From assembly GCA_951406725.2 (NCBI GenBank), contig OX597816.1, positions 159,340,001 to 159,404,000 of the forward strand: a stretch of DNA of 64,000 nt. The letters are read 5' to 3'. The position numbers and the translations under genes were made by a program. Shown here one piece after another: positions 3,021 to 32,211 of this stretch (the first letter of the stretch is position 1; every line of letters starts with the position of its first letter). The stretch comes from Octopus vulgaris (Eukaryota). The notes under the pieces are model-generated. The model worked only from the letters and a program-made list of their open reading frames with translations, was not told the origin of the DNA and did no database searches.

Positions 3021-3187
3021 CTTTTAACTTCTTCAACTTATCAATGACATGTTGAAGAGCAGACAAGGTGCCAGTCTTCTTTCCACGTCCTTTTGATGGA
3101 GGAAGCATAGATTTAATTTGTTGAATATACGCTTTAACTTTTTCTTTCTTGATTTGCCTAAATTCATTCCCGGTAACATGCATGCTA
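3021..3187 (-). CDS. per: PER coding exon: SMHVTGNEFRQIKKEKVKAYIQQIKSMLPPSKGRGKKTGTLSALQHVIDKLKKLK(E)
   Basis: Acceptor ttttgcag, donor gttggt, 167 nt, phase 2-1. LPP..KGR...GTLSALQ aligns by eye with the conserved N-terminal helical region of vertebrate PER (LPPERRGKGRSGTLATLQYAL-type). Confidence 0.92.
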
Positions 3188-3296
3188 CTGCAAAAGAGAA
3201 AACAGAAAAAAAAAAGGGTAATCAAATTAGCCTTTGGTCAATGAAAGAGATTATTTTGATTAAAAAAAAGCATTCATCTAATCATTTTTTTTTTAC

Positions 3297-4120: not shown

Positions 4121-4195
4121 CTGCAACCACTTGTTGATGGTTGGTCATCAGTAGTTTCACTGCTTAGGGATATGCTTACACTACTAGAACTTCCC
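4121..4195 (-). CDS. per: PER coding exon: GSSSSVSISLSSETTDDQPSTSGC(S)
   Basis: Acceptor ttttcag, donor gtatgt, 75 nt, phase 2-2. PSTSGCSS is the motif found in vertebrate PER N-termini. Confidence 0.9.
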
Positions 4196-5085
4196 CTGAA
4201 AATAAAAACAAATATGACACTTAAGAATATTGAATCACAAAATAATTTCATATTTAATTTGGATGTAATAACATTTAACGTAAACGTTTAAGATTACTGG
4301 ATCTGTAAAATGCAAACCCAGTTCCTTCATTAATGAATTTTCATTTAAATAAGTCAATATTGATAGCAAAAATATTAGTAAGCAATTTAAAAATGATTTA
4401 TTACAAAAAAAAAAAGAAATATAATGAACGATTCTAGTAATTCAGCTTAAATTTAATGCTTTCAGATATATTGATTTGATTGATTAATTTAGTTCTTAAT
4501 TAAAAGCTGGCAGAACCTTCCCTCTCCAAGTTTACAGAACTGTAACTTCAGTAGTGAACCTAAGCACATCATCAGAAGACCAAATTTTATCAGCTATATA
4601 GACATGGGTTTTAATCATTACTTTTATATAAAATAATTAAGCCTAAAAGTATCAAACCTACAATACCTAAAAGTATCCTGATCAGATGCAATTAATCTAC
4701 AGCACAAACTGTTTATTAAATTGTAACTTAGTATTTGCTATTATTTACATTGGATGAAGTTTGATAAAACAATTCTGTTAGAAATTATTATAACTGTGTA
4801 TTGCAAATATAAGTTAGAATAAAAAAGGAATTTGTTTCAGTTGAAAATAAAATAGAAAAATATTTTTTATGCTAAGTAAAACTGTGAGCATAAGGCCATT
4901 TTAGCAGAATTAATTCAGAGATGACATAACTTCAGAAAGAGAATACACAAATCCCTCAAGACAAAAAAAAAAAAAAAAAAAAAAGCGACACAAGTTTGCC
5001 TATCACTGAGTCAGAAAATGATAGTTTCAATTCTTACAGAAGAGATTTGAAGTAAAAATAAGCTAGCGCCTTATAAATGTATATG

Positions 5086-5475
5086 TAGGCGCAGGTGTGG
5101 CTGTGTGGTAAGAAGCTTGCTTCCCAACCACATGGTTCCAACTCAGTCCTGCTATGAGGCACCTTGGCAAATGTCTTCTACTATAGCCTCGGGCCGACCA
5201 AAGCCTTGAGTGGATTTGGTTAACGGAGACTGAAAAAAGCCCATTGTATGTGTATATATATATGTTTGTCCGTCAGTGTTTGTCCCCCCCTACCATTACT
5301 TGACAACCGATGTTGGTGTGTTTATGTTCCCTAAACTAGCGGTTCGGCAAAAGCGACCGATAGAATAAATACTAAGCTTACAAGGAATAAGTCCTGGGGT
5401 CGATTTGTTCGACTAAAGGCGGTGCTCCAGCATGGCTGCAGTCAAATGACTGAAACAAGCAAAAGAATAAAAGAA
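5086..5475 (+). mobile_element. tRNA-derived SINE, family A (octopus-type), near full length
   Basis: tRNA-like head (GGCTGTGTGGTAAG...GGTTCC...CAGTCC) and tail ...GACTGAAACAAG(TAAAAGA)n. Many copies in the window. Confidence 0.85.
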
Positions 5476-8400
5476 TATACATAGATATTTTATTTATTCA
5501 CACGCGCACGCAAAATCTATCTAGAAAACAAAGAACCACAACTCATGAATGTATAAATTGGAGTTACGTCCCATGTTTACAATAATTTTTTTTTTTTTCT
5601 ATAATTGATTTCATATATTGCAGTGGTTATCTTTTGGGTGATGCACGAAAATCAAATTATTATTATTATATATATCGTACGGAAATTAAAAAAAAGAGTT
5701 TGAAAGTTACCCTTCCAATATTCAGTCATTGCATACCTTGTCTTAATAATGATACACGAATATAATTTATGACTAAAACAACATCTCAACACCAGTCGCC
5801 TAACCCATGCAAGCATGGAAAAATGGACATTAAAAACGAACAAATGAACATGTGAGCAAACTATAAGTCTATATGCTATATTCATAAAATTAATGAATTT
5901 GATGGAGAATGTGAAATTAATCAGAGATTGACAAGCATTAAAAAAGATGGATAAAATACATTCAAACTAGTCTGGATGTTAGAACAGTGGTAAGAAGTAA
6001 GGTGATTAGTGGACAGAGATAAGTGAAATTAACAAGTAGTTCATGAAATGTGTAACATTGCATTTGAATTTAACAACCTAACTAAATCTCCTAACAACAT
6101 TCAGACACTAATCTCTTTGCAGTAGATTATATTCAAACTAATCTTTCCACAAGCTTAATGTAATCCCACACTGACATCAACTTGTTTTCACTTTCATCAA
6201 ATCTACAATAACTAAGACTATAATTCTAGATCTCAGACTTAATCAAATCAAGACTATCATCATCATCATTCCCATTTAATGCCTGTTTTCCATGCTGGCA
6301 TGGGTTGGATGGTTCAACAGAAGCTGGCAGCAAGAAAACTGCCCTTCCTAATGCCAACCACTTCACAGAAGTTTTTTTTTTTACATGGCATGAGCATCAA
6401 TGAGATCACCAGGTTAACTTGCAAGTCAAAACAACCTCAATTCAGGTGAAGGTGTACTATTGTGCCAGGTGATGAAAAGTTAAAGTATGATAGAGGGACA
6501 GAAACAAGTGTCTAACAGTAAAGGAGATAAATAGTTACCGCGGTTGGAAAAGTGAGAGGAAAGAGAGAGAGAGAAGATAGTGGTAAAGATGTGTCAGGGT
6601 GAAACCACAAGTTACAGGGAGGTCAGTTTATTAATATTTCAGTTCTAGTGTCTATTGATCTACATTTGTATTCATGCACATTGATGCAACTGAGCAAGTT
6701 GTTTCAATCTACATGTTACTCTGTTTGACACTGGAGACTTAACACTGTCTGCAGCATGTTTAAAAAAAGGCAGTGTTTCCTGCTACTATGAGACAGAATT
6801 TGAACTCCGAATGTAAAGAACATGAATAGATAATGCAAGGCATCTTGTCTTGAGACTAAGAATTTCACTGCCTCTGGCTGGCAGTTATCAATCCTGGAAG
6901 AATGAAAAGCAAAATTGACCTCTACAAGATTTGAACTCAGAATGTCATTTCAAATACTGCAAGTTACCTCCATCCTTAATATAAACTTAAATATAAGAGA
7001 TTCCTTTGGAAACCTTAAATTTGTTAAGTATGTAAGAAGATTGAAAATGAACTGGAGTGTAAGTGGATTCTTTCCATAGAATTAAACTTGTCTATGGAAA
7101 TCTTGAATTAGAAGAAAGAGGAATACTGTTGATCAGTAGGAAGTCTAGAGAGAAATGATGAACCTCAATTTGTAGCTGTTTTTAAGCAATAAACCAAATA
7201 AGCTGATAATTAAGAGCATAATGCATTAATTCTATAAGCTAGCTCTGAAATATTAGTGATATGTCTCATCTATTGATTAACTTAATTATCAAAGCAATCT
7301 TGGTTGTGGTTTATAGCAACAGTGGCCAAACTGCAGCTCTCAAAGCTACCAAGTGTGACTCCATAACATCCTACCGACTGGATTTTATAGTATAAAATAT
7401 AATGAAGAAGACTCGATAAAAGCCTTCAACAAGCAGGCATTAATCAATCTACTTTAACAAGTAAAACTATATCACAATATATTTTCTTATTTGTATTGAG
7501 TGTAAAATATCATGTGGCTTTTCTTATTAAACAAACTGACTACCCTTCGTTTATAGTATCTGAGATACAGAAGTGGTTCAAGATGAGCAACAATGAGAAT
7601 AGATGATTAAACACTACAAACCATGTCAGTATAGAGAGAAGCATGAAATACAATAGTTATTTTATAGTTTATAAAGAGGTTGCAGAAAGTCTTGAGTTTC
7701 AAACACCATTGAAAGACATTACAAGAATAATCAAGTAGCATAAAAATGGATATATTACAATGTATAATTAAAATATAATTTAAGAAATCCATCTTTTCAA
7801 AAAGTATTTCCTACTATATCTTTCGCTGTACAAAATGCACTGAACAAATTTTAAAATAGCTTGGTGAAATTAAGGTAAATTAGTATTCACTGCAAACTCA
7901 ATGATGACAAGAAGCCAAACAGATTTCTATGGAAATTGAAATAAAACAATTCAAAATAGACAAAGCACTAAGAAAAGAAAATTTCAATATTGTTTCTACT
8001 TTAAAAATGTGTAAATTGATCTAATGCAGATTGAATGAGAAATTAAAACGAAGATTAATTATAAGAGAATTGGCATTTCTCATATTATATAACAACCATC
8101 TTTTCACACTAGCAGAGTTAACAAGTCTTTCACATTGTTTTCTATGGTATCCATGGTTATTTTCCCGACACTTTTTTTTTATTATCAAACTTTCAACAAT
8201 CGATTTAATATCATGTCCATACCACTCAAATATTCTAATTAATAATATATGATCTCTTTGCTCACTTAAAAACACATTCTAGCCTTTATGTCTAATATTA
8301 CACTCTTGATTAGTGACATTTCCCTCTATCATCTTCACAAATGACAAACCATGTTTTCTCTATTCATATTTCCTTGAAAAACACCCACATGCTTTAGGAC

Positions 8401-11400: not shown

Positions 11401-12244
11401 ACAGATTGTAACGGTTTCTGGAAGGAATGACTAGGAGCTGAAGTTTTTATAATATAAATGATTGCAAGTTGAACATATTCCATTTCATTCTAGGTAACCA
11501 AAATAAAATTTGTTTTTGCAACGGTTGAGTTCATACTACAAATAACTTTTAATAAGTCCCTTTTTGACCCGAAAACAAAGTTTGAAACTCTTGAAAGTGA
11601 AGAGAAGCATACATTTATTTGAATTCCAGAGCCACATCTTTGAAAACCAAGGAGCAATGTCCCTAAATTATTACATCTTTTTAAACTCTGAATATCTGTA
11701 GTTGGTTGTATCGTTAAACTGCAATCATTATTCGTAAAATTTAAAAGTGATTTCTGATATTTTCTATTTTATACACAGAATAACTGTCTTCATTATATGT
11801 ACTCAATGTCTTCTGAAAGTACCACATAAATGGGTTTTCACAAAGTAACTGTGGTATCTTGACCAGTGTATTTCCTTTAAACTTGCTCAAATTTATCCCA
11901 AATTCCATTGCCTAGTTCATTAAAAAGTATGAGTAATAGTGCTTTCTAAAAGGTAGAAGGCCTCACATTTGACAGATAGGCATATTTGATAAACTGAGCC
12001 CACAACACAATTGGTATTATTTTATCAACTTAAGCAGGATGAAAGGCAAACTCTACCTTGGTTAGACTTGAACTCAGAAAGCAAAGGGATGAAACTTAAT
12101 CCCACAAGGGATTGTTCAATTTTACTTATTCTGCCAACCCACCACCGTTACGATACAAGTAATATTGACACTAAAATTCTAATGACAAAGTGGGCTATTT
12201 TTTAAGACACTGCATAGCTAGAATGGGAGCTAATTACAACTTAC

Positions 12245-12388
12245 CTCACAGTATCTTCCATATTTGTGAAGAGAAAGTAGATATGGACTTGGGATAACAC
12301 AGATATAAGATCTTTAATAATAACTTAAGTAAATAGTTGAATTTCGTAGGTGCCAGAATCAAACCAAGCAGGGAGACAGCTAAAAAAA
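12245..12388 (-). other. Candidate alternative per exon: 5' UTR plus MEDTV(R), ATG at 12261-12259
   Basis: Polypyrimidine acceptor tttttctctttcag, ATGG start, and strong donor GAG|gtaagt in phase 2, compatible with exon 4121-4195. No transcript evidence available. Confidence 0.5.
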
Positions 12389-14633
12389 CTGAAAGAGAAA
12401 AAAAGTACCTTCAAGTTGTTGTTAAAGGCTAAAAGCATAGGTATAAAAAGACAATATGTGCTTCAAAATGAAAATCATTTCAAGCTATGAGGAAAAAAAT
12501 ACCAAAAGTCTCAGCTGACATTCTCATATAGTTTCAATAACAAATATAATTTAATAAATTGAATATTTTAAAACAAACAGAATTTTGTATAAAAGCAAAT
12601 CCAAAATGCTCAAATCATATTAAACAAAATAAATATTCTATTCAAATTCACTTCAAGCTTTGACTAATTAACAGAGTAAGAAATTTATATTTCTATCTAT
12701 TTTTTTATTTTTCATTCCATGTTCAGTTCAAATTTTACCTCTAAATTATGGAATTTTTACATCCGAGTGTTTTTAAAAAAGTAACTTTGCATCTTAAACT
12801 TTCTCAGCTAATATACATTTCTTACAAATGCACAGATTAATTTCTAAATGTGGGAGGATAGGGGATGAGACTATGTGATGTCCTTATTTTCAAGGGCATT
12901 AGAAGATAAATGAAATGAAATAGTTCCAACCAAGAATTTAAACCAAAATGCAGACTCAGCAGTGCTTAAGTTGCTTTATAAATGTAATATTAAGAATTTA
13001 TTATCAAAGGGTTTATCACGAACTTAAGATTCATAAAAATAGCATGCCCAGTGTACACAAACTCTAATCATAATTACAACTTCATTAAAATGCTACATAT
13101 CATTATCTATACTATAATAAAGCAAGTCTCTTATTAATTAGCTTAAAATATGTAAATTTTACTAAAAGAAACCAATTATCAAAGTCTATATTGTCAAAGA
13201 AATTCTAATAAATTTCAATTTTAATATATTATAAAGGTTGCTTAATTATTTGCAACACTACTTTCTACAGACACGTCAGTAAAAGCATTTTGCCAAATTA
13301 TGTTTAATCTAGCATCATCTGAATTATGTTGATTCCAATCTTTCATATTTGTTGGGTGATGTTGAAGATGGTAATCTGAAGACTTTTACCTGATTTCTTT
13401 GTGAATTCTAATGCGGTATTTGAATGCTAGATATTATTCTGAATTTATTTACTGAATGAGTACTATTAGACAAAGGATACAAAGGAAAATTAAAAGTAAC
13501 ATATCAGAAACATTACACAAATTGAGAAACAAATGTGTACATCTCATTTAGAAACTAGTAAAAATCTATGGGGCAGTTTTTCTGTAAGTGATAAAAATAA
13601 AGGAAACATTCCCCTCCCCTAAATATTGCTCACCCATTTATCTGCATTGTTTAGGAGCATTTGAGAAGGTTGCCACCGAATAAATTAAGAAAAAAATCAA
13701 ATATCAAATAATAAAATTTATTGTAATTCAAAAATGTCACCAGTAGTGCATTAGAGATTTTAAATATTATTTTAAATACATTTTAAATACTGGGTGAAGG
13801 AAATACATACAACCACACACTACATGATAAAGTGTGCTGTGGTGCTTATGACCAAATCTGAAGCATGGTATATGCAGAGTAGTGGACCTGTGAATTACTC
13901 TTGCATATCTGAGCAGCTGTTATTGCTCTACCATAACACTATTGCTTCAGCACAGTTGAACAGGATGTATGCATATATGTATGTGCACTGCAATGATGTA
14001 AACATACCAAGAAAACCAATAAGTATTTAGAAACTTTGAGACATGTGATATAATCTGATTTTAACTGTAAAACTCAAAGTAGATAAAGCTATAAGTAATA
14101 GCATGTAGAATGCTGAGTTATAAAAACCCAGGAACCATAAAATGAAAAAAAAAAAGCCAAAGGGCTTCCAATGAGAGCTGAACTCAAATCTGGGCAGCCT
14201 TTGATTTTTCCTATCCAAAGCCTTTTCTTTTTAACGCAGGATTCTACATACTATCATTTATAGCTATATCTACGAGTTCCACACTTGAAATTGAATTATA
14301 CCAACTAATGTGACTACATATAGAGAGAATAGGGTTAAGTGCAAGTTAATATACTTATTATTTCAGTTGAACAATAAGGAATAAATTAAATGAGATGAAA
14401 TAAAAATGATTTCTTACAAAATCAAATAATTTACAAGTCAATTTTTTGAGAAACAAACAACAAATTTTCTTTTTCTTTGTTTGAAATTTCAAATTATGCA
14501 TGAATAGAGTTTACTTCATTGTTCTGTGATCTTAAGGTTTATCTCTCTGCAAGGCATGTTGGACTTTTCTATTATAGCCTTCAGGTGACCTTGTAAATGA
14601 AATTGGTAGAGGGAATTGTAAGGAAGCTTGTTG

Positions 14634-16809: not shown

Positions 16810-16859
16810 CTTAGTGTCGATTCATGGGCCGAATCATAGAGAGAACTTATCTGTGCCAT
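16810..16859 (-). CDS. per: Period (PER) homolog, first coding exon: MAQISSLYDSAHESTL(R). The exon spans 16810-16888 including 5' UTR.
   Basis: Minus strand reads ttttag|GATCAG...gccATGG (good Kozak context) and ends CTAAG|gtaagt. The phase-2 end matches the phase-2 start of exon 4121-4195. LYDSAHES resembles the DSAYS motif at the Drosophila PER N-terminus. Confidence 0.75.
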
Positions 16860-19800
16860 GGCAAAACTGCCGACCAGTTGGGCTGATCCTAAAACAAATA
16901 AATTCAACAGTATTACAAATCATTGTCATTATTATTATTGTTATACAGGAGATGATTTACATGCAAGACTCATTTATATATTTTTTTATAATAATAATAA
17001 AAAAAAGAAAAATTTTAGGATCTATGTAGAAATTAATACAAAAATAAAACTAATAAATGCAGTGTATTACAACACATTGTTTCCTGATGAGTCCCAAGTT
17101 GGTCATGATTGAGTAGATCTATGATCAAAGGCAGTCCAACTGTGAACATCCTGTCATTTTAATGTATGCAAGGAACCTAGGATTACATTATCCAATGTGT
17201 GTCTTTTCTAAGATAACAGAGTATGATTCGAAGGGGATTTGGCTCTAACACCACAAAGGCTCCCATGATAACAGATTAACTTCAGTTTACTTTTCAGAAA
17301 ACAGTTTTAACAGCTCAGAAACAACAACAGTACATTCTAGATATAACTTATTTGTGAGATAGGCAGGGTAGACAAAGACATGGCTGCAAGAACAACACAA
17401 TGATAAAATCAATTACCCAACATTCAGATGAATGTTTTGTGTATGAACATGAAGTCTTGCTGAGATGATTTTTGTGGTTAGTGTTAACAAGAGATTCCTG
17501 TGGTGTAAACAATCTTTCATATTTTGGAAAAGGAATGATAACTGTGTGTGTGAAAGAGAGAGGGGGAAGAGAGAAATGGCATGCACACACATACATATGT
17601 GTGCACACAGACAATTTAATACTTGGTGGTGGTTTCTAATTAAACTGCGGAAGATCCATAGGGGTTAGCTAGCAAAATTAAGTTTTGTGAGACTTTTTGT
17701 CACATTAATCCAAATTTTATGCATAACAATTTTATGCATGCATTTTACCTATACTGAGTATTAGAATTATTCTAATAAGAATTGAAATCATAACTAAGCA
17801 GCTGTTAAAACTTGGGCTTTAACAAAAATTCTCAGAGAAAAATGTACATCTTACATACAGCAAATAGATGATTTCATTTATATCGTATTTCCTCCAGTGT
17901 AAGGCTTTAATAAACAAACTATAGATAAACATTTTTTTATAAGTGATACAAAAATATGAGAATATATTTACAGATGATTCTGCAGATCTAAATGTGCTTC
18001 TTTATTACCCTACTAATCTCCCATCATGTCACAAGTTAGAGGAATAGCATCACATTGGATCTGTCAGTATTCAACCCACACCTACCATCATCCAATTTTA
18101 TTACCAACTTCCTCTTGTTCTCACTCTTCCTCTCCAATCATGCACTACTGACATCCATTACTCCAGCTCTCTTACTTTCACCTGCTTTTATCCATCATTA
18201 TCACTCATTCATTCTCTCACCACTGTTTCTACTCATGCTGTTCTTAATTAATCTTCTTACAAACAGCCAGCATTAAGTTATCACTTTCTTTACTATCTCT
18301 CTCTCTTTCACTCACTTTGGTTCTCCTTTAATCACTCTTCTACTTACCAAAGGACAAGACAAGCCAGAGCTTCTAGTGGACAAATGAACACAGACAACAT
18401 AAGACAGTGAAGGCTAATCTAGCTGACTAACACCGCAATGAATGCACACTCAGTACACTGTACTGGTTCCATGTCATTGTGGTCGGTCAATGACTGAAGA
18501 CAACGTAGGGTAGGACATGATGACCTTTCTAGTGCTGATACCATAATAAAATATACTAAGTAGGTTCTGTAAAATTATTAGCAGTAAGAAGGATAACAGC
18601 CATAGAAAATATTGTCAAAAATGGAATATACAAAATATTCTGTATATTCATGTATGTTGAAAATCTAAGCCTCATAAGTGAATAGGAATTCCAAACAGGG
18701 AAGCAGCATCTGGAGACAAGAGGCCTCTCAAAGTAAATCTATCAAGGGCAAAAGTTTTAATTAGCAAGAAAAATCACAAGGCTACTGTCATCAGGGAGGC
18801 AGTCATGTTCAATTTGCAGAAAAGGAGTAGGTAGGAACTCTGCATGAAATGTAAATTGCGGGGGCACAATAGATGCAATTGCAGAAGTATAGCAGTAAAA
18901 GGAAGATGAAAAAAAAAAAAAAAAAGAGAATCAGATGTAGCATAAAAGAGAGGAAATGACACTCATACAAACATGTAATGTATGAATAGAAGAAGACAGC
19001 TAAAGAAACAAGTGCCTAACAAACCAAATGAAAAGAAGCAGTGGAAAAGGAAGGCCAAAGAAGACGTGGAAAGAAGTGCTGAAAGCTGATCTCAAGAGAT
19101 TGACCTCAACGAGGAGATGACAAAAGACCACAACAAATGGTAAGACAATTGGCTCAAGAAAACCTGGCAACCCATGCGATCATGAAAATGACGTAAAATT
19201 GACAATTATCGTAATAGCGATTATATGTACACACACACACACATGCATGTGCACACATCTGCACTTGCATGCATGCACACACACACACTACCTCTAAAAG
19301 AAATACTGTTACCTTCTTTTTTTATGACAGGGGAGAAGGCAGCACCTATGACTTTGACTTTGGCAGGAGGAAATTATTCAAAAACTAGAAACATGGTCTA
19401 AATATTTGCAATGCAGTGTACTTTGCTAAAGGCATCCTAAGGCCAGGTGGTGGTAGAGGTAAACAACCTGGTTAAATCTATTTTAATTCACTAAATAAAA
19501 TTAAGCTTACATTAACCAATTTAATCCAGTTTTGTGTCAAACACAATAGCGTGAGAAGGAAAAAGGACAAAAAAAGTTATTTCTGATCTATATATTCATT
19601 ATTCTCTTAGCTCTCTAATCTTAATAAGAACTTGGAATTTTGTGAAACAAAAGCAAAGTAGTTAAAAATAGACGAAAAAGCTATTTATTTCGTTTCTCCG
19701 TTATATAAAATACAGGTTTAGGAAAGCAGACAGAAAAGAATTATCTAGATTCAATAGACAAAGAAAATAATTCACACTAAGTTCATAAATTATTTATTTT

Positions 19801-22800: not shown

Positions 22801-25800
22801 TGCTAATGTGAAATTAATGGATGTGGTGGAAAGGGGTGGGGAGTCCTTCAATGTGCATGTTTTGAACGTATATCTGAACATGTATTGGCATCAACCATTA
22901 AGTGCTTGTGTATCAATCTATTTTTTTCAGCTTTGGATACTCAGTTTCACATTAACCAAGGAATAAATACTAAACTATTCATCCAAATAAATTAATGTAG
23001 TCAGACTATTCTCAAGTATTGCACTGTATTCTACATGACTCAGTGAAGCTGAAGTGAAATTAATCATTACTGATGCTTCACTGAGCAGCTGGCATTAACT
23101 AAGATCTTTCATTCATAAATAACCAATATAAACACACATGTACACACCATTTGGCTGGCATTAACTAAGATCCTTGAGCTATAAATAACCAGCATAAACA
23201 GGGAACAAGCACAACGGTCAAGTGAACATGACATCAGTTCATTAGTTTATATATATCATTAGACAATTTTTTATCCATGAACAATTTTTTTAAATAAAAT
23301 AAAAATTAATGTTTTCTTTACTTCAATTTAATAGTTAAGTAGACAGGCTCCAACTAATAATTTACAAATTAACATTATGAATCCTAAGAACTATTAAAGA
23401 TCTGTAGCACAATATTTATGTTAAATTAATCTAATCAAGGAGCTTCTAAATAGTTGCTCTAACAGTATTCATTATAGTAGTGAAATATCTTTAAAGCTCA
23501 AAACTCAGACATAACTGCGAGGCTAAGAAGTTTAATTCCCAATCATATGGTTTCATGTTCAATCGCACTGCAAGGTACCTTGGGAAGTGTCTACTTCTAT
23601 AGCTCTGGGGTTGACTAAAGCCTTGTAAGTTTGGTAGAGGAAAACAAAGAGGCCCATTGATATATATATATATATCTGTATAGGTGTGCTTGGTGTGTGT
23701 TAGTGTCACGTTGATCAGTATCAGACAAGCGAGAGTTGATGACATGAAGGACAACCGTCCATAGAAAAGAGGCATCAACAAATTTTGTCCAATCCATGCA
23801 TGGACAGGTGGATGTCAAAATGATGATAACTCTATATTTTAAGGGTCAAACCAACATACCTGCTGATCAGTTCTATGGAGTTGCTCAACAGTTACCTCAA
23901 CTAGAGTACTCAAAGTCAACATTATCACCATTGTTTTAACATCCATTTTTCCATGCTTGGATGATACTTGATGATGCAGAATTTTTATGGCTGGAAGCCC
24001 TTCCTGTCACCAACACTTGCCAGTATTCAAACAAGATTACACTCCCCTATGGCTGGACATGTTTTCTTTGAAAATTTTCAAAGGAAATACACTGTATGAT
24101 TGTGATACTCATTTTACAAGGATTGCATCAGAAATACAAAATCACACACATGCATACATATATAGAGAGGGGTTCTTTCTGTTTCTATCTATCCAATTCT
24201 GCATGAAAAGCTTTGGTTGGCCTGGGGCTATAGTAAATGACACTTGCCCAAGGTGTCCTGCAGTGGAAAATAGCCTGAAACCAAGTGATCAGAAAGCATA
24301 CTTCCTAATCACAAAGCTATTCCTGTACATTGTAGAAGAAAAATAATTAAAACGATGTCATTATGCAAATATCCATGAACAGTAGAAAAATTATCAATTT
24401 GTTATTTTAAATTATTCATTTAGACGTCATCCCTTATTTCTTATCAACAACGGCATTAATTAGAAAAAAGAAAACAAAGCAGTAAAAGTAAAGATATGTT
24501 TAAAAGCATTAGGTAACCATATGTAAACATTTAAACTGCAAGCAGGTGAGAGGAACCTTAATTACTTGGCTTCACAGACATAGGCAGAGAATCTAATCTA
24601 CTTCAAGTCACAACCTACCAATAAAGGACAAGATTAAAAAAAAAATGTAGTTCTAGACATGCTAGGCTGAAAAAGAAAAAAAACAAAACAAAAACCAGAT
24701 TTGTTCTGTCAAGATCAATCAAGAGACGTTTGAAGTTCAACAGCATAACAACATCCCACAGTATAAATTTACCAGTTAGCATCATTAAAATTACATTACA
24801 AACAGAATATGTTCAACCACAGTTCAGAACTGACTGAACATGCCTATGATCAAATGTCTCCCAGCCATAACCAACCCTTCTTGTATTCAAGAGTAGTGTA
24901 ACTAAGACTACATTATTGAATATGTCCTTTTATTTTTGGGTCAGTAGAATGTGATTTGTGGAAGGGAAGGGGGATTTGTTATTTTTAACAAACCTAGCAA
25001 CCACACAGATGCTTCATGTCGTTTGCTATTATTAATTGTCATGAACAGAAGTATAAATTGTAAATAAGAGACACCAATTAGCTATCATCATTGCATAAAA
25101 GATTTTCTAAAATGCATCAAGGCAAAATGGTTCTCTATAGTTTTAACTGTCAACAGACTAAGACTTCATCCTTAGAGCAAAAATTTGAAATGTTCTCCCT
25201 ATAGCCAACAAAGGTTGCTAATTAAAATTATCATTTTTGTCTTCTAGTCAGGATGGAAGGTAGTTCCCATGGCTGCTTCTAAGACAAGCAGAAGGTACCT
25301 TCAAACGAGATATCTGACCTGAATGCTTGCAACAGAATGGACTCTGCTGAAGACACTCAAGGTACTAAGTGGTGGTACTAAACCAGGAGATGGTTTACAT
25401 CTACATTTGAAGTAGGCCAAGAGTCCAAGACATTAAAATTGTGGGCTCATATGTTGACCAAAACTGTGCCAAATATGTAGGTAGTCATCATGAAAACACT
25501 TGATAAGAAACATTACATTCTAGAAACAAAGTTGTAGTTTGGGAACGTTTTTCATTGAGAAAAAGAAAATGGAATACATCAACAACATTTTAGGGTTCAT
25601 TTTTCCATGCTTACATGAGTTGGATGGAGTTAACTGAAGTAGATTTCCAATGACCAGATACCCCTTCTATTGCTAACCTTGCCCATTTCCAAGCAAGGTG
25701 GTATTTCCTGAAGGCCAGACATGATCTTGCAGAATATTGGAAATGAATGATACTGCTTCTATGATGATGACAAAAGACACATGCGCACACACAAATATAT

Positions 25801-27860: not shown

Positions 27861-27920
27861 AGCAATAATAATAAGCAAGTATAATTATAATTGAATAACT
27901 AAATCAGTGTAACTTAAGAC

Positions 27921-28120
27921 AAATAAGGAATTATTTGCCAAATAAGGAATAATTTGCCGAATAAGGAATAATTTGCCAAATAAGGAATAATTTGCCAAAT
28001 AAGGAATAATTTGCCAAATAAGGAATAATTTGCCAAATAAAGAATAATTTGTCAAATAAGGAGTTATTTGTCAAATAAGGAATTTTTTACCGAATAAGGA
28101 ATTATTTGCCAAATAAGGAA
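27921..28120. repeat. Minisatellite, 19-bp unit AAATAAGGAATAATTTGCC, about 10 copies
   Basis: Direct head-to-tail repeats with few substitutions and no spacers. Confidence 0.95.
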
Positions 28121-30759
28121 TCATCTATGTTAAACACATGGAAATAAAATCAATAACTGAACAATGGGGATAAAAAAATCAATAACTAAACAATAAAAGA
28201 TTAATGTTTAATGTTTTGCAAGTATCCAATCTCCAGCCAAGGCTTCACATTATTTCCATAAATGGCTATATTACTGTCCTCACTTGATATCGATTATATT
28301 TGGCCTGAGCCACCTACAGCTCTTGTAGCAATATCCTTCTTTGGTCTACTTCTGCACAGAAGGAAAATATAGTTTGTGGAATCTATTTAGTATATGACCC
28401 ATGCATAAAAGAGAAAAAATAATCATTGCCCCCCCCCTGGAAAATTCCAAAATAATTCCCCTTATCAAATACCAATAGGTACAGGTATGGCTGTATGGCA
28501 AGAGGTTTGCTTTCCAACCATGTAGCTTCATGCTCAGTACTACTGTGTGGCACCTTGGGCAAGTGTTTTCTACTATAACCCCAGGCTGACCAAAGTCTTG
28601 TCAGTAGATTTGGCAGTCAAAACAGGAAAGAAACCCATCATATATATGTATGAGTGTATCCTTCCAATACTCTACAAAAGCATGTCTGGCCATGGGAAAA
28701 TATAACTTTGCTTAGAAATAAGCAAGTGTTTGCAGTAGGAAGAGCATCTAGCCATAGGAAATCTGCCTCAATAGATTCCATCCAGCCCATGCAAATGGCT
28801 GTTAAAAAACACTGATCTTTGACTTGATCTTCAAAGGTAAAGTGAAATAGCTTCAAAATATCATTTGACCTTACATCTGACTAGCTATCATGACCTTAAA
28901 TTTTGGCAAAAACAGAATAAATGTTGCAACTGTCAAATCTTCCCACTGGGTATCAGTACTGTAATGGAACCAAACCCAGTTGCAAATTTTGACATGATCA
29001 GGACTTGGTCGCCTACTTTTAAGCCGATTGGCTTCATTATAGGATTACTAATTACCCTCAGTTTTAGAAGTACAACCTTCTCAATCACCTACTACATCCA
29101 CTCTTGTGTTAGTTACTACTAAGTTCATAAATTATTATTTATGTAGGATAGAGCAAACTGCATGACTATAGAGTTATCTATCATGTAATACTTTTGACTT
29201 TTTATCAAGAGGATAACTGAAACAGCAACAACAAATTGAAGCTGACATAAACTTGATCCAGCAGCAGTTTATCCTTGCTTGTCTTAATCGCTTACTACTC
29301 ATCAGCTGAATACAGCTAACTGTATGCACATGTATGTCTGTGTGCGTGCTGAAGTAGGATTGGTGAAGTCATTCATTATGGTGATCGTTTTAATCAGTAC
29401 ACAAACAAGTCTTGTGAAACTCTAGCTTCAACTGGTTTCTTGTGAGAAATATTTTATTGTTTGACCTAGCCACTCTGTTTCTGAGAAAGAAACTTGACTA
29501 ACTCTCATCTGAGTCAACGAGAGACTCTCTACACGTGTGTGGAACATTTTAGAAAAAGCAGGCAAATCAGCCTAAAGTCATACCCTATCTTGACAAAAAA
29601 AAAAAAAAGAAATAAATTGAAACAAGCACATTGGATAATGTAGTCCTTAATAGATTATGTCTGAAAAAAATATCAGAATGGTAACAACTTTGATCAAAGG
29701 TTAAGGTAACAGCTTTGATTATAGGCCTCCTGGAACAACCTGTTCTCACTGGTTTGGTCCAGTTTGCTATTAATGAGCAATAAAGAACACAGTGTTCTAT
29801 AAATGAGAGCACTAGATAATTGATGAGTGTTTGGTTTCTTAAATTCAAAAACTTTGCAATTTGCAACAGATACCTGTTATTGTCCCTGGAAAGACAAAAG
29901 GCAATCCTGGCTAGATTTGAACTCAAAATTAAATGAAGCCCTATTCATTGAAAAAAATATAATAAAGCTATCAATTTTTTTTTTTAAATAAGTACAGTTT
30001 TGACTGGATTGGCAGAATTGTTCAAGCAGTTTAGTCCTAGTTTTTTTTTTTATTTGCATTCTGAGTTTAAATTCCACTGAGATCAAATATGGCCTTTCAT
30101 CCTCTTATGCAAGTAACCAATTAGCTCCTCTGCAAGAAACTTGGTCTACTCTGATCCTTTCTCTCATACCTCTTCATCTAGCATAGTCAAAGGTGATCTT
30201 AGTCCTGCAAGCTGTATGGTGACCTCAAAACTGCAGGTGTCACAAAAAAAGCATCCAGTAAACACTATGGTATGGTTAGGAAGGGTATCCAGCCACAAAA
30301 TCCATGCCATAGCAGACACTGGGGCATGATGCAGTCCTCAGACTCATCGAAATCCTGTCAAACCATCAACCAAAACCAGCAAGGAACATGATCCTTAATT
30401 ATGAGAGTTGGACTGGCAGGATCATTAAGAAGAACTGAAAAGTATTTGAACTCTAAGTTCTGAGTTCAAATCCCATCGAGATCAACTCTGTCTTTCATCC
30501 CTGCAAGGTCAATAAAATTAAGTACCAGTCAAATACTGGCGCTGGTGGTCTCAACTAATCTCTCCCCTGACAAAATTCTTTGAGCTATTTATTCCACTTC
30601 TTTATGCTCAAGTTAAAATCTCTCGCTGAAGTCTCAAGTACTTATTTTATCTTTTCAAGGTTCAGTCAAGTACGAGGGTGTGGGGTGACATCGATTAACC
30701 CTTCCCCTCAAAATTTCAGATTTGGCGTTTATATTATAAACAATCATCATCATCAAGTA

Positions 30760-31500
30760 TTTAGCTTGGTTATGCAAAATCGGTGTGTGTGTTATATATA
30801 TACGTGCGCGCTTAGACACCCTATATATAGAATCACAAATGCCATCAACCGGTTATTATTATTATTATTATTTTTAAAAAAAGCATTGGAAAGTGATCAC
30901 AATATGCGGCTTCCACTGCATATAAATGCACAGCGGGTGCCACGAATTAGAACCACAAGTAATGTTATCGACCGGTTATTATCAAAAACAGCGCCAACAA
31001 ACTTTTCATTTGTTTAATGCCGTCAGGTTTAAAAAAAAAATTTAAACTGATAACAATAAGCGACTTCGACTGTAATATAAAAATGAATGACGTAATGTAA
31101 AAAAGTTCGTCTCCTCGTCACATTTCCAAACGAGTGACTCGCTGATTTGGCGGAAAAAAGAGAATCAAAAAAATTCGGCGCAAGTGGAATAATCAAGCGC
31201 AAGATTTTTTTTTTCTTAATAAAAATAAAATTAAATATATATAATTTGAAAAAAAGAAAGTAAAATCATCGTTCAGCGGTTATTCCTGGTCATTTCTATT
31301 AGTAAGCAGTATTAAACGACACGAGTAGAAAGTAATTCTGGAAAAGTACAGCGAACATGTGAAAGAGACCACCATGACAATGGTCACCCGTCGAAACATG
31401 TGAATTGACAAACATTGCCGTTTCTAGTTGGTCATGAGAGAAGGGGGAGCTAAAGCAAGCAGCTTACTAAAAATAGCAGCAGTCACACGATGATGCAACG
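30760..31500 (-). promoter_or_regulatory. Candidate per promoter / 5' regulatory region
   Basis: Apparently non-repetitive, CpG-retaining segment at the edge of the CpG-depleted gene body. Contains D-box TTATGCAA (30770-30777), CRE/PAR-bZIP-like TGACGTAA (31088-31095) and repeated AACATGTG non-canonical E-boxes. Confidence 0.4.
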
Positions 31501-32211
31501 AATATTGCATTTAGAAGGTGCTTTTTTAAAGTCATTTTGCAATAAATTCTTCTATTTATATTCAATAGTTCTGCAAGTGACACAACAGTAAGAAATAGTG
31601 CAAATATCTGATGCAGTTTACACTCAAACACTTTTTATTAAATTAATAATGTAAATATTTAGGTTGATTATTACTATCTCTAAAAAGTATGATATCGTTG
31701 AATGACACAGCAAGCCAACGTGACTTCGTTCTTTAAATAAATAGCGTGATTTTCTTAAATATTTTGTTTTATCTAGACGCCTATCCCAATTACCTGGGAT
31801 ACCTATCCCAATTAACTGCTATACTTTTAATTAAAAATTCATGATTTACAATTAAAAAAATGTACTTAGTATCAATTATTTTATTTATTTATTGGTTATT
31901 AGAATAAATATATAAAATAAAGATATTGACGTTAAGTGCAGTGTTTTTCAAATTGGATTTTACAGATCCCCAAAGTTTCGCAAGATAAAGGGTCTTTTGA
32001 CAAAATTTAATAGAATTTCATTTTATAACTGCAATTTATAATACCATTTTCAAAACGACAAAAATATATGATTTTTAAATAAATAAATTCCCTCTTAAAA
32101 ACAATATTTCTTTAATTTTATGTTTTAATAAAAGTAGAATGGCAGGGGACTCCAAGACTTTTTCTGAAAGGGATCAGTAACAATGACATCTGTATTAATG
32201 CACTTTTCAGA

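Follow-up and report, generated by a model that had tools for sequence, protein, structure and literature searches.

An intronic segment of the Octopus vulgaris period gene, here called exon B, is spliced into transcripts as a cassette between the exon that carries the main start codon (exon A) and the next coding exon (exon 2). We think it probable that this conserved exon damps the output of the PER clock protein and at the same time swaps its N-terminus, by means of a stop and a restart. All positions given below refer to the window, i.e. the whole 64,000-nt stretch of DNA that was analysed, and the features are collected in Table 1. The gene is identified as period by homology: the translation of exon 3 (3186-3022) is 100% identical over 55 aa to P0001, a protein named Octopus vulgaris PER for which the families PF00989, PF08447, PF14598 and PF12114 (PAS and Period_C) are on record. 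Members of the P0001 cluster bear the name period circadian protein. P0001 itself begins with intron read-through (MKLFCD..., ATG at window 4251), which is probably a modelling artefact.

Table 1. Features of the 5' region of period in the window
Feature	Position	Strand	Basis
Cassette exon B, 144 nt (48 codons), between exon A and exon 2	12245..12388	-	joints in transcript-type contigs
Polypyrimidine tract and AG acceptor of exon B	12389..12410	-	sequence; used in transcript-type contigs
GTAAGT donor of exon B	12239..12244	-	sequence; used in transcript-type contigs
In-frame TAA that closes the exon A reading frame, 80 nt upstream of the exon B donor	12325..12327	-	sequence
Second start, MEDTV and split codon of R, context ACAAAT ATG G, 63 nt after the TAA	12245..12261	-	MEDTVR/MEDTLR proteins
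Exon A, 79 nt, main ATG 16859 (context TTTGCC ATG G), encodes MAQISSLYDSAHESTL, internal with its own acceptor	16810..16888	-	contigs; P0004, P0005, P0009
DSAHES codons, the octopus version of DSx[YFH]xS, a protostome PER motif; putative degron	16818..16835	-	sequence comparison
Exon 2, 75 nt, common to both forms, serine-rich, ends PSTSGC(S), the first part of a D1-type degron	4121..4195	-	sequence and contigs
Exon 3, 167 nt, common to both forms, completes TSGCSS, encodes a basic helix	3021..3187	-	P0001 match and contigs
Probable upstream exon C, weak-context in-frame ATG (MSVKP)	24566..24666	-	gene model P0006 alone

The segment had been singled out, from the letters alone, by a strong acceptor, a GAG|gtaagt donor and a phase that fits the exon at 4121-4195, and all three are found in the sequence. 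On the minus strand its upstream flank is TTTTTTTCTCTTTCAG and its downstream flank is GAG|GTAAGT; its 3' end, ATG GAA GAT ACT GTG AG, joins position 4195 at a phase 2 junction to give MEDTVR-GSSS. The entire minus strand of the window has just two copies of the string AG|GTAAGT, those at the donors 16810 and 12245. Donor strength by itself was dropped as evidence for the exon, because the AGGTAAG 7-mer also turned up in 43% of 300 Markov-resampled versions of the intron and is therefore not beyond chance. The combination of the donor, an in-phase ATG in strong context and a strong acceptor arose in none of them (0/300). The stretch is single-copy in the 2.8 Gb genome assembly that contains the window at C3:159340001-159404000. 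An origin as a processed copy or repeat was rejected on this single match and on the absence of a tandem repeat at the exon.

Splicing was examined in contigs from four of 24 candidate runs, one from each of four studies, all selected as holders of exon B. None of the runs is recorded as RNA and their RNA status is a tool's guess, but they do show joints with CT..AC ends that fall exactly on exon borders. Thirteen runs from five studies share exactly 0.36 of the sequence words, a fraction that fits the exon alone, and three of these 13 are among the runs examined. The two joints by which the original prediction could be checked, 16810->12388 and 12245->4195, are both present in three of the four runs (X5, X8 and X12), so that the predicted cassette order 16810->12388->12245->4195 is seen in every run in which exon B is spliced. 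In X8, exons A, B, 2 and 3 follow one another on a single 2193-nt contig. Three of the four runs (X5, X12 and X1) have the skip joint, 16810->4195, and X1 combines it with unspliced coverage of exon B. Exon B is thus confirmed as a real, spliced exon. An alternative acceptor for it (second AG, 12380) was also considered and is absent from the contigs, which use the 12388 acceptor instead. By contig depth, a rough and poor measure of level, include joints compare with skip joints as 20 versus 21.5 in X5 and 207/126.9 versus 71.3 in X12, while X8 has the include form only. For runs selected as carriers of exon B, these rough figures make the included form a common steady-state product in three of them rather than a trace.

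Exon B had also been proposed to serve alone, as an alternative N-terminal exon. In the three runs with spliced exon B there is no 5' end or joint that bypasses exon A: contigs of X5 and X8 run continuously from exon A into exon B, and the X12 contig enters exon B with exon A letters. Because both flanking joints and the skip joint are seen, and exon B is entered from exon A alone in all three runs, it is a cassette exon and not a stand-alone first exon; no other 5' neighbour was found in these runs, whose contigs drop rare forms. One could nevertheless suppose that short PER comes mainly from transcripts lacking exon A, with exon B as first exon or joined to exon C, and that the form with both A and B is a by-product. 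Clean translation of MEDTVR would then follow. Low-depth intronic contigs lie just upstream of exon B in X5 and X1, and hemipteran and possibly bivalve short ends come from alternative starts; moreover, rare forms would be dropped by contigs, and the read check began at exon A. Weighed against exon A as sole 5' neighbour in 3/3 runs with spliced B, the strong acceptor of exon B, and a gene body that is CpG-poor to about 30.5 kb with no CpG-rich promoter-like stretch near the exon, this supply route seems to us improbable.

Inclusion of exon B changes what the main start codon encodes. The ATG of exon A (16859) becomes the start of a 37-codon upstream ORF (uORF), since the frame read through from 16810 contains exactly one in-frame stop, at 12327-12325; a single TAA upstream of the new ATG had been foreseen, and this is where it lies. 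Exon B holds one ATG, with A at -3 and G at +4, which follows the uORF stop after a 63-nt spacer. The stop lies more than 50 nt before the downstream junction, as in a poison exon, and the upstream ORF ends before an in-frame ATG in strong context, as in a uORF and re-initiation arrangement. Because it places a stop after the normal start and also brings a new in-frame ATG, exon B is formally both an NMD-type stop exon and a source of a new start. In mammals, the spacing optimal for re-initiation is given as ~78 nt (PMC6614817). In HeLa cells it works best after small uORFs, and it gives no robust protection from NMD (PMC10187673).

Our preferred reading, the stop-and-restart cassette, would work as follows. 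When exon B is included, the frame from the normal ATG would stop after 37 codons and a new in-frame ATG would be supplied. This second ATG would be reached by re-initiation (or leaky scanning) after the uORF, and a share of the included mRNA would probably be lost to NMD. The included mRNA would likely yield less PER, in the short MEDTVR form, without DSAHES and with TSGCSS. Given re-initiation at the second ATG and partial NMD, the inclusion ratio would set the PER dose and the long:short ratio together.

Alternatively, exon B could be a poison or attenuator exon, whose mRNA goes to NMD or whose uORF traps ribosomes, so that almost no MEDTVR protein is made. The strong context of the first ATG, a uORF that at 37 codons is long for re-initiation, and a stop 80 nt before the junction would all suit such an exon. 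Its length would be a multiple of three by chance only, and the purine-rich GGAAGA at its end, which we assume could be a splicing enhancer, need not then be kept for coding. In HeLa cells, uORF termination elicits NMD irrespective of re-initiation (PMC10187673). Against this stand an included form that, by rough contig depth, is at least as abundant as the skipped form in three runs, the Met-Glu-Asp-Thr-(Val/Leu)-Arg end that is kept from octopus to cuttlefish with conservation starting at the Met, and the motif-less ends found at the same junction in bivalves. On these grounds we regard a pure poison exon as unlikely.

The conservation of the short end comes from protein records. Two predicted ORFs start with MEDTVR: P0008 (RefSeq XP_036357375.1, O. 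sinensis isoform X3) and P0011 (UniRef A0A0L8GNN8, O. bimaculoides). These are exactly the MEDTVR-GSSS protein predicted from exon B, and the O. sinensis X3 form shows no difference from X1 behind the junction. The product of exon B is therefore already in automatic annotation, but its cassette order, uORF, motif loss and conservation are not mentioned there. In a cluster that includes Sepia pharaonis PER (15 of its 19 members listed), four proteins start with MAETGEFSDSAFGSSSIVIR (P0012, P0014, P0022 and P0023) and two with MEDTLR (P0002 and P0015). The latter ends lie on 3 and 11 contigs, and a third model carries MEDTLR internally; the bodies of the long- and short-end cuttlefish PERs are identical over 1524 aa. 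Before the Met, 3 of 21 residues are shared by octopus and cuttlefish; from the Met onward the figure is 4 of 5, as expected if coding starts there. At the level of protein records, then, two PER ends are conserved from octopus to cuttlefish, and MEDTVR, whose conservation in other cephalopods was to be checked, extends to cuttlefish as MEDTLR. Among the PER proteins examined, no MEDT-type end was found outside coleoid cephalopods. P0003 and P0028, from another cephalopod-type PER cluster, begin differently again, with MSGKRCISLASTSKTPQG, which has neither the motif nor MEDT.

Could exon B still be tolerated splicing noise without function? A consensus donor does arise readily by chance in resampled introns, as noted above. 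High inclusion and a short end that is the same across octopods and cuttlefish speak against noise, which the cross-lineage conservation largely refutes; we consider it very improbable. The exon B event is real, conserved and in part already annotated.

We inspected ten further PER clusters for paired ends at the same junction. Two of them, both bivalve, show both kinds of end, while none was found among the members listed for the other eight. In Mytilus galloprovincialis, X1 (…DSTYGSFSG|FISS) and X2 (MMRKHTIKTVR|FISS) have identical tails. An unnamed bivalve cluster, which its likeness to Pinctada P0029 suggests is oyster-like, pairs …DSTYGSLRSG|MQDSS with MVKFGLQDFNLK|MQDSS. The residues at the bivalve joins would fit a phase-2 junction, as in octopus. 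Since the bivalve short ends share no homology with MEDTVR, the bivalve and cephalopod switches may be parallel solutions.

Loss of DSAHES from the short form had been predicted to remove a motif resembling a beta-TrCP/SLIMB phosphodegron. We surveyed 34 hand-picked molluscan-type PERs (one per cluster, plus three isoforms), leaving out five matches that lack the N-terminal anchor, as well as all non-molluscs. In 20 of the 34, a motif DSx[YFH]xS lies 29-35 aa before D1 (TSGCSS); behind the TSGCSS anchor, the same pattern has 6 matches in 43,659 residues. The motif takes the form DSSYGS in gastropods, DSTYGS in mussels, DSNYGS in scallops and DSAFGS in cuttlefish, and is missing from the remaining 14 PERs, which include all heteroconch and unionid bivalves seen. 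The octopus DSAHES is its most diverged copy, with H and E in place of Y and G. Arthropod-type PERs (e.g. P0202, P0189 and P0210) have DSAYSNS, DSGYSNS or DSAYGS, the P0202 peptide being the fly PER peptide of PMC6372208. By this comparison, DSAHES is an eroded version of a motif of protostome PERs and not a chance look-alike. Vertebrate PERs (P0069-P0100) carry KDSA(L/M)LE(T/S) about 39 aa before TSGCSS, perhaps its homologue by position.

Among known beta-TrCP degrons, those whose third residue is Ala include NFKB2 DSAYGS, NRF2 DSAPGS and WEE1 DSAFQE (Table 1 of PMC10317156). DSAHES matches the pattern D-S-G/A-x-x-S as a DSA variant and not in the strict DSG form, but is two positions off the NFKB2 sequence. 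The motif region is a short, disordered, putative phosphomotif. In fly heads, the phosphosites listed for the matching peptide are S25 and S27, outside DSAYS (Table 1 of PMC6372208), and the SLIMB site of fly PER is given as S44-S47 (PMC9502492; bioRxiv 10.1101/2025.01.17.633578). No functional study of the protostome motif DSxYxS was found in the open-access literature searched. We entertain only tentatively the idea, speculative in itself, that DSAHES might work as a second beta-TrCP phosphodegron, the short form then being more stable. Against a degron role stand these fly sites, the 14 PERs without the motif, the divergence of the octopus copy and the absence of lysine from the 17 aa that the swap removes.

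The degron established in mammalian PER1/PER2 is D1, TSGCSS (PMC11223080), and octopus PER has TSGCSS at the same place. It is present in 32 of the 34 molluscan-type PERs and in both octopus forms. Since exons 2 and 3, which encode it, are kept in both, the exon B switch would remove at most a second, putative degron. The original prediction thus holds in that a conserved, DSA-type match is lost from the short form, and is limited in that the established degron stays. At exon 3, a tandem acceptor CAG TAG (3185-3190, minus strand) offers a second AG that would cut TSGCSS to TSGCSM; this loss was rejected, as the 3187 acceptor alone is used in 4/4 runs and all cephalopod proteins that include the region read TSGCSS.

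Related arrangements are known from other clock proteins. In Neurospora, thermosensitive splicing of intron 6 of frq gives l-FRQ and s-FRQ (PMC2267733). There too, as that source describes it, splicing picks between two starts of a core clock repressor to give long and short N-termini, and uORFs tune output; the difference is that frq splicing removes the first AUG, whereas octopus exon B, by being added, ends the frame of the first AUG and introduces another one. Temperature dependence and function have been demonstrated for FRQ, while octopus exon B is known from sequence and contigs. Hemipteran PER has N-terminal isoforms without a phosphodegron, and its authors speculate on SLIMB sensitivity (bioRxiv 10.1101/2025.01.17.633578). 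In this case the gene is the same and an alternative 5' structure again yields forms without a conserved N-terminal region, but, as reported there, alternative starts and dual-frame exons drop an S47-type degron, whereas the octopus cassette drops only DSxYxS and keeps TSGCSS. Drosophila ls-tim and s-tim use two ATGs 23 aa apart and differ in degradation behaviour (PMC9038958); these are also long and short N-termini of a clock protein, but of another protein and, by that account, through a DNA polymorphism and not splicing. No paper on splicing or degrons of molluscan or cephalopod per was found in the open-access literature searched.

Clock speed is set by PER stability, which also has a central part in temperature compensation. 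To our knowledge, molluscan clocks are known almost solely as gene lists. The present results provide a concrete conserved splice event at the cephalopod PER N-terminus, with parallel motif-less forms in bivalves, and point to a protostome-wide PER motif, DSxYxS, that is degron-like in sequence. Exon B would also be a natural case of a premature-stop exon and a conserved new-start source in one. More boldly, one might conjecture that molluscs share an old switch in which splicing at a single phase-2 junction of period either supplies or omits a second, putative beta-TrCP degron (DSxYGS, as in NFKB2 p100). The cephalopod version would act through the stop-and-restart cassette, with inclusion following temperature or time of day and tuning PER dose and half-life together, as an animal counterpart of Neurospora l/s-FRQ; we put this forward with considerable doubt.

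Further upstream, exon C contains an 8-codon uORF, and its weak in-frame ATG would add 15 aa to PER (P0006) or, on inclusion of exon B, lengthen the exon A uORF to 52 codons. The CpG observed/expected ratio rises from about 0.1-0.3 to 0.9-1.5 at window 30500-31800, and this end of CpG depletion at ~30.5 kb suggests that the period promoter and first exon lie near 31 kb. A CACGTT box (31717-31722) and, near 31468, a possible donor point the same way. The intron between exons A and 2 holds high-copy interspersed repeats at 4800-5750 and 6200-6700 (very high contig depth), and a 19-bp tandem array of 10.6 copies lies at 27920-28121. An out-of-frame 8-codon ORF (with a second ATG) runs across the DSAHES codons at 16811-16837 on the minus strand and stops just before the exon A donor. 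Finally, a variant site is suggested by branching of the X12 contigs at 16818, the third position of the codon for the last Ser in DSAHES.
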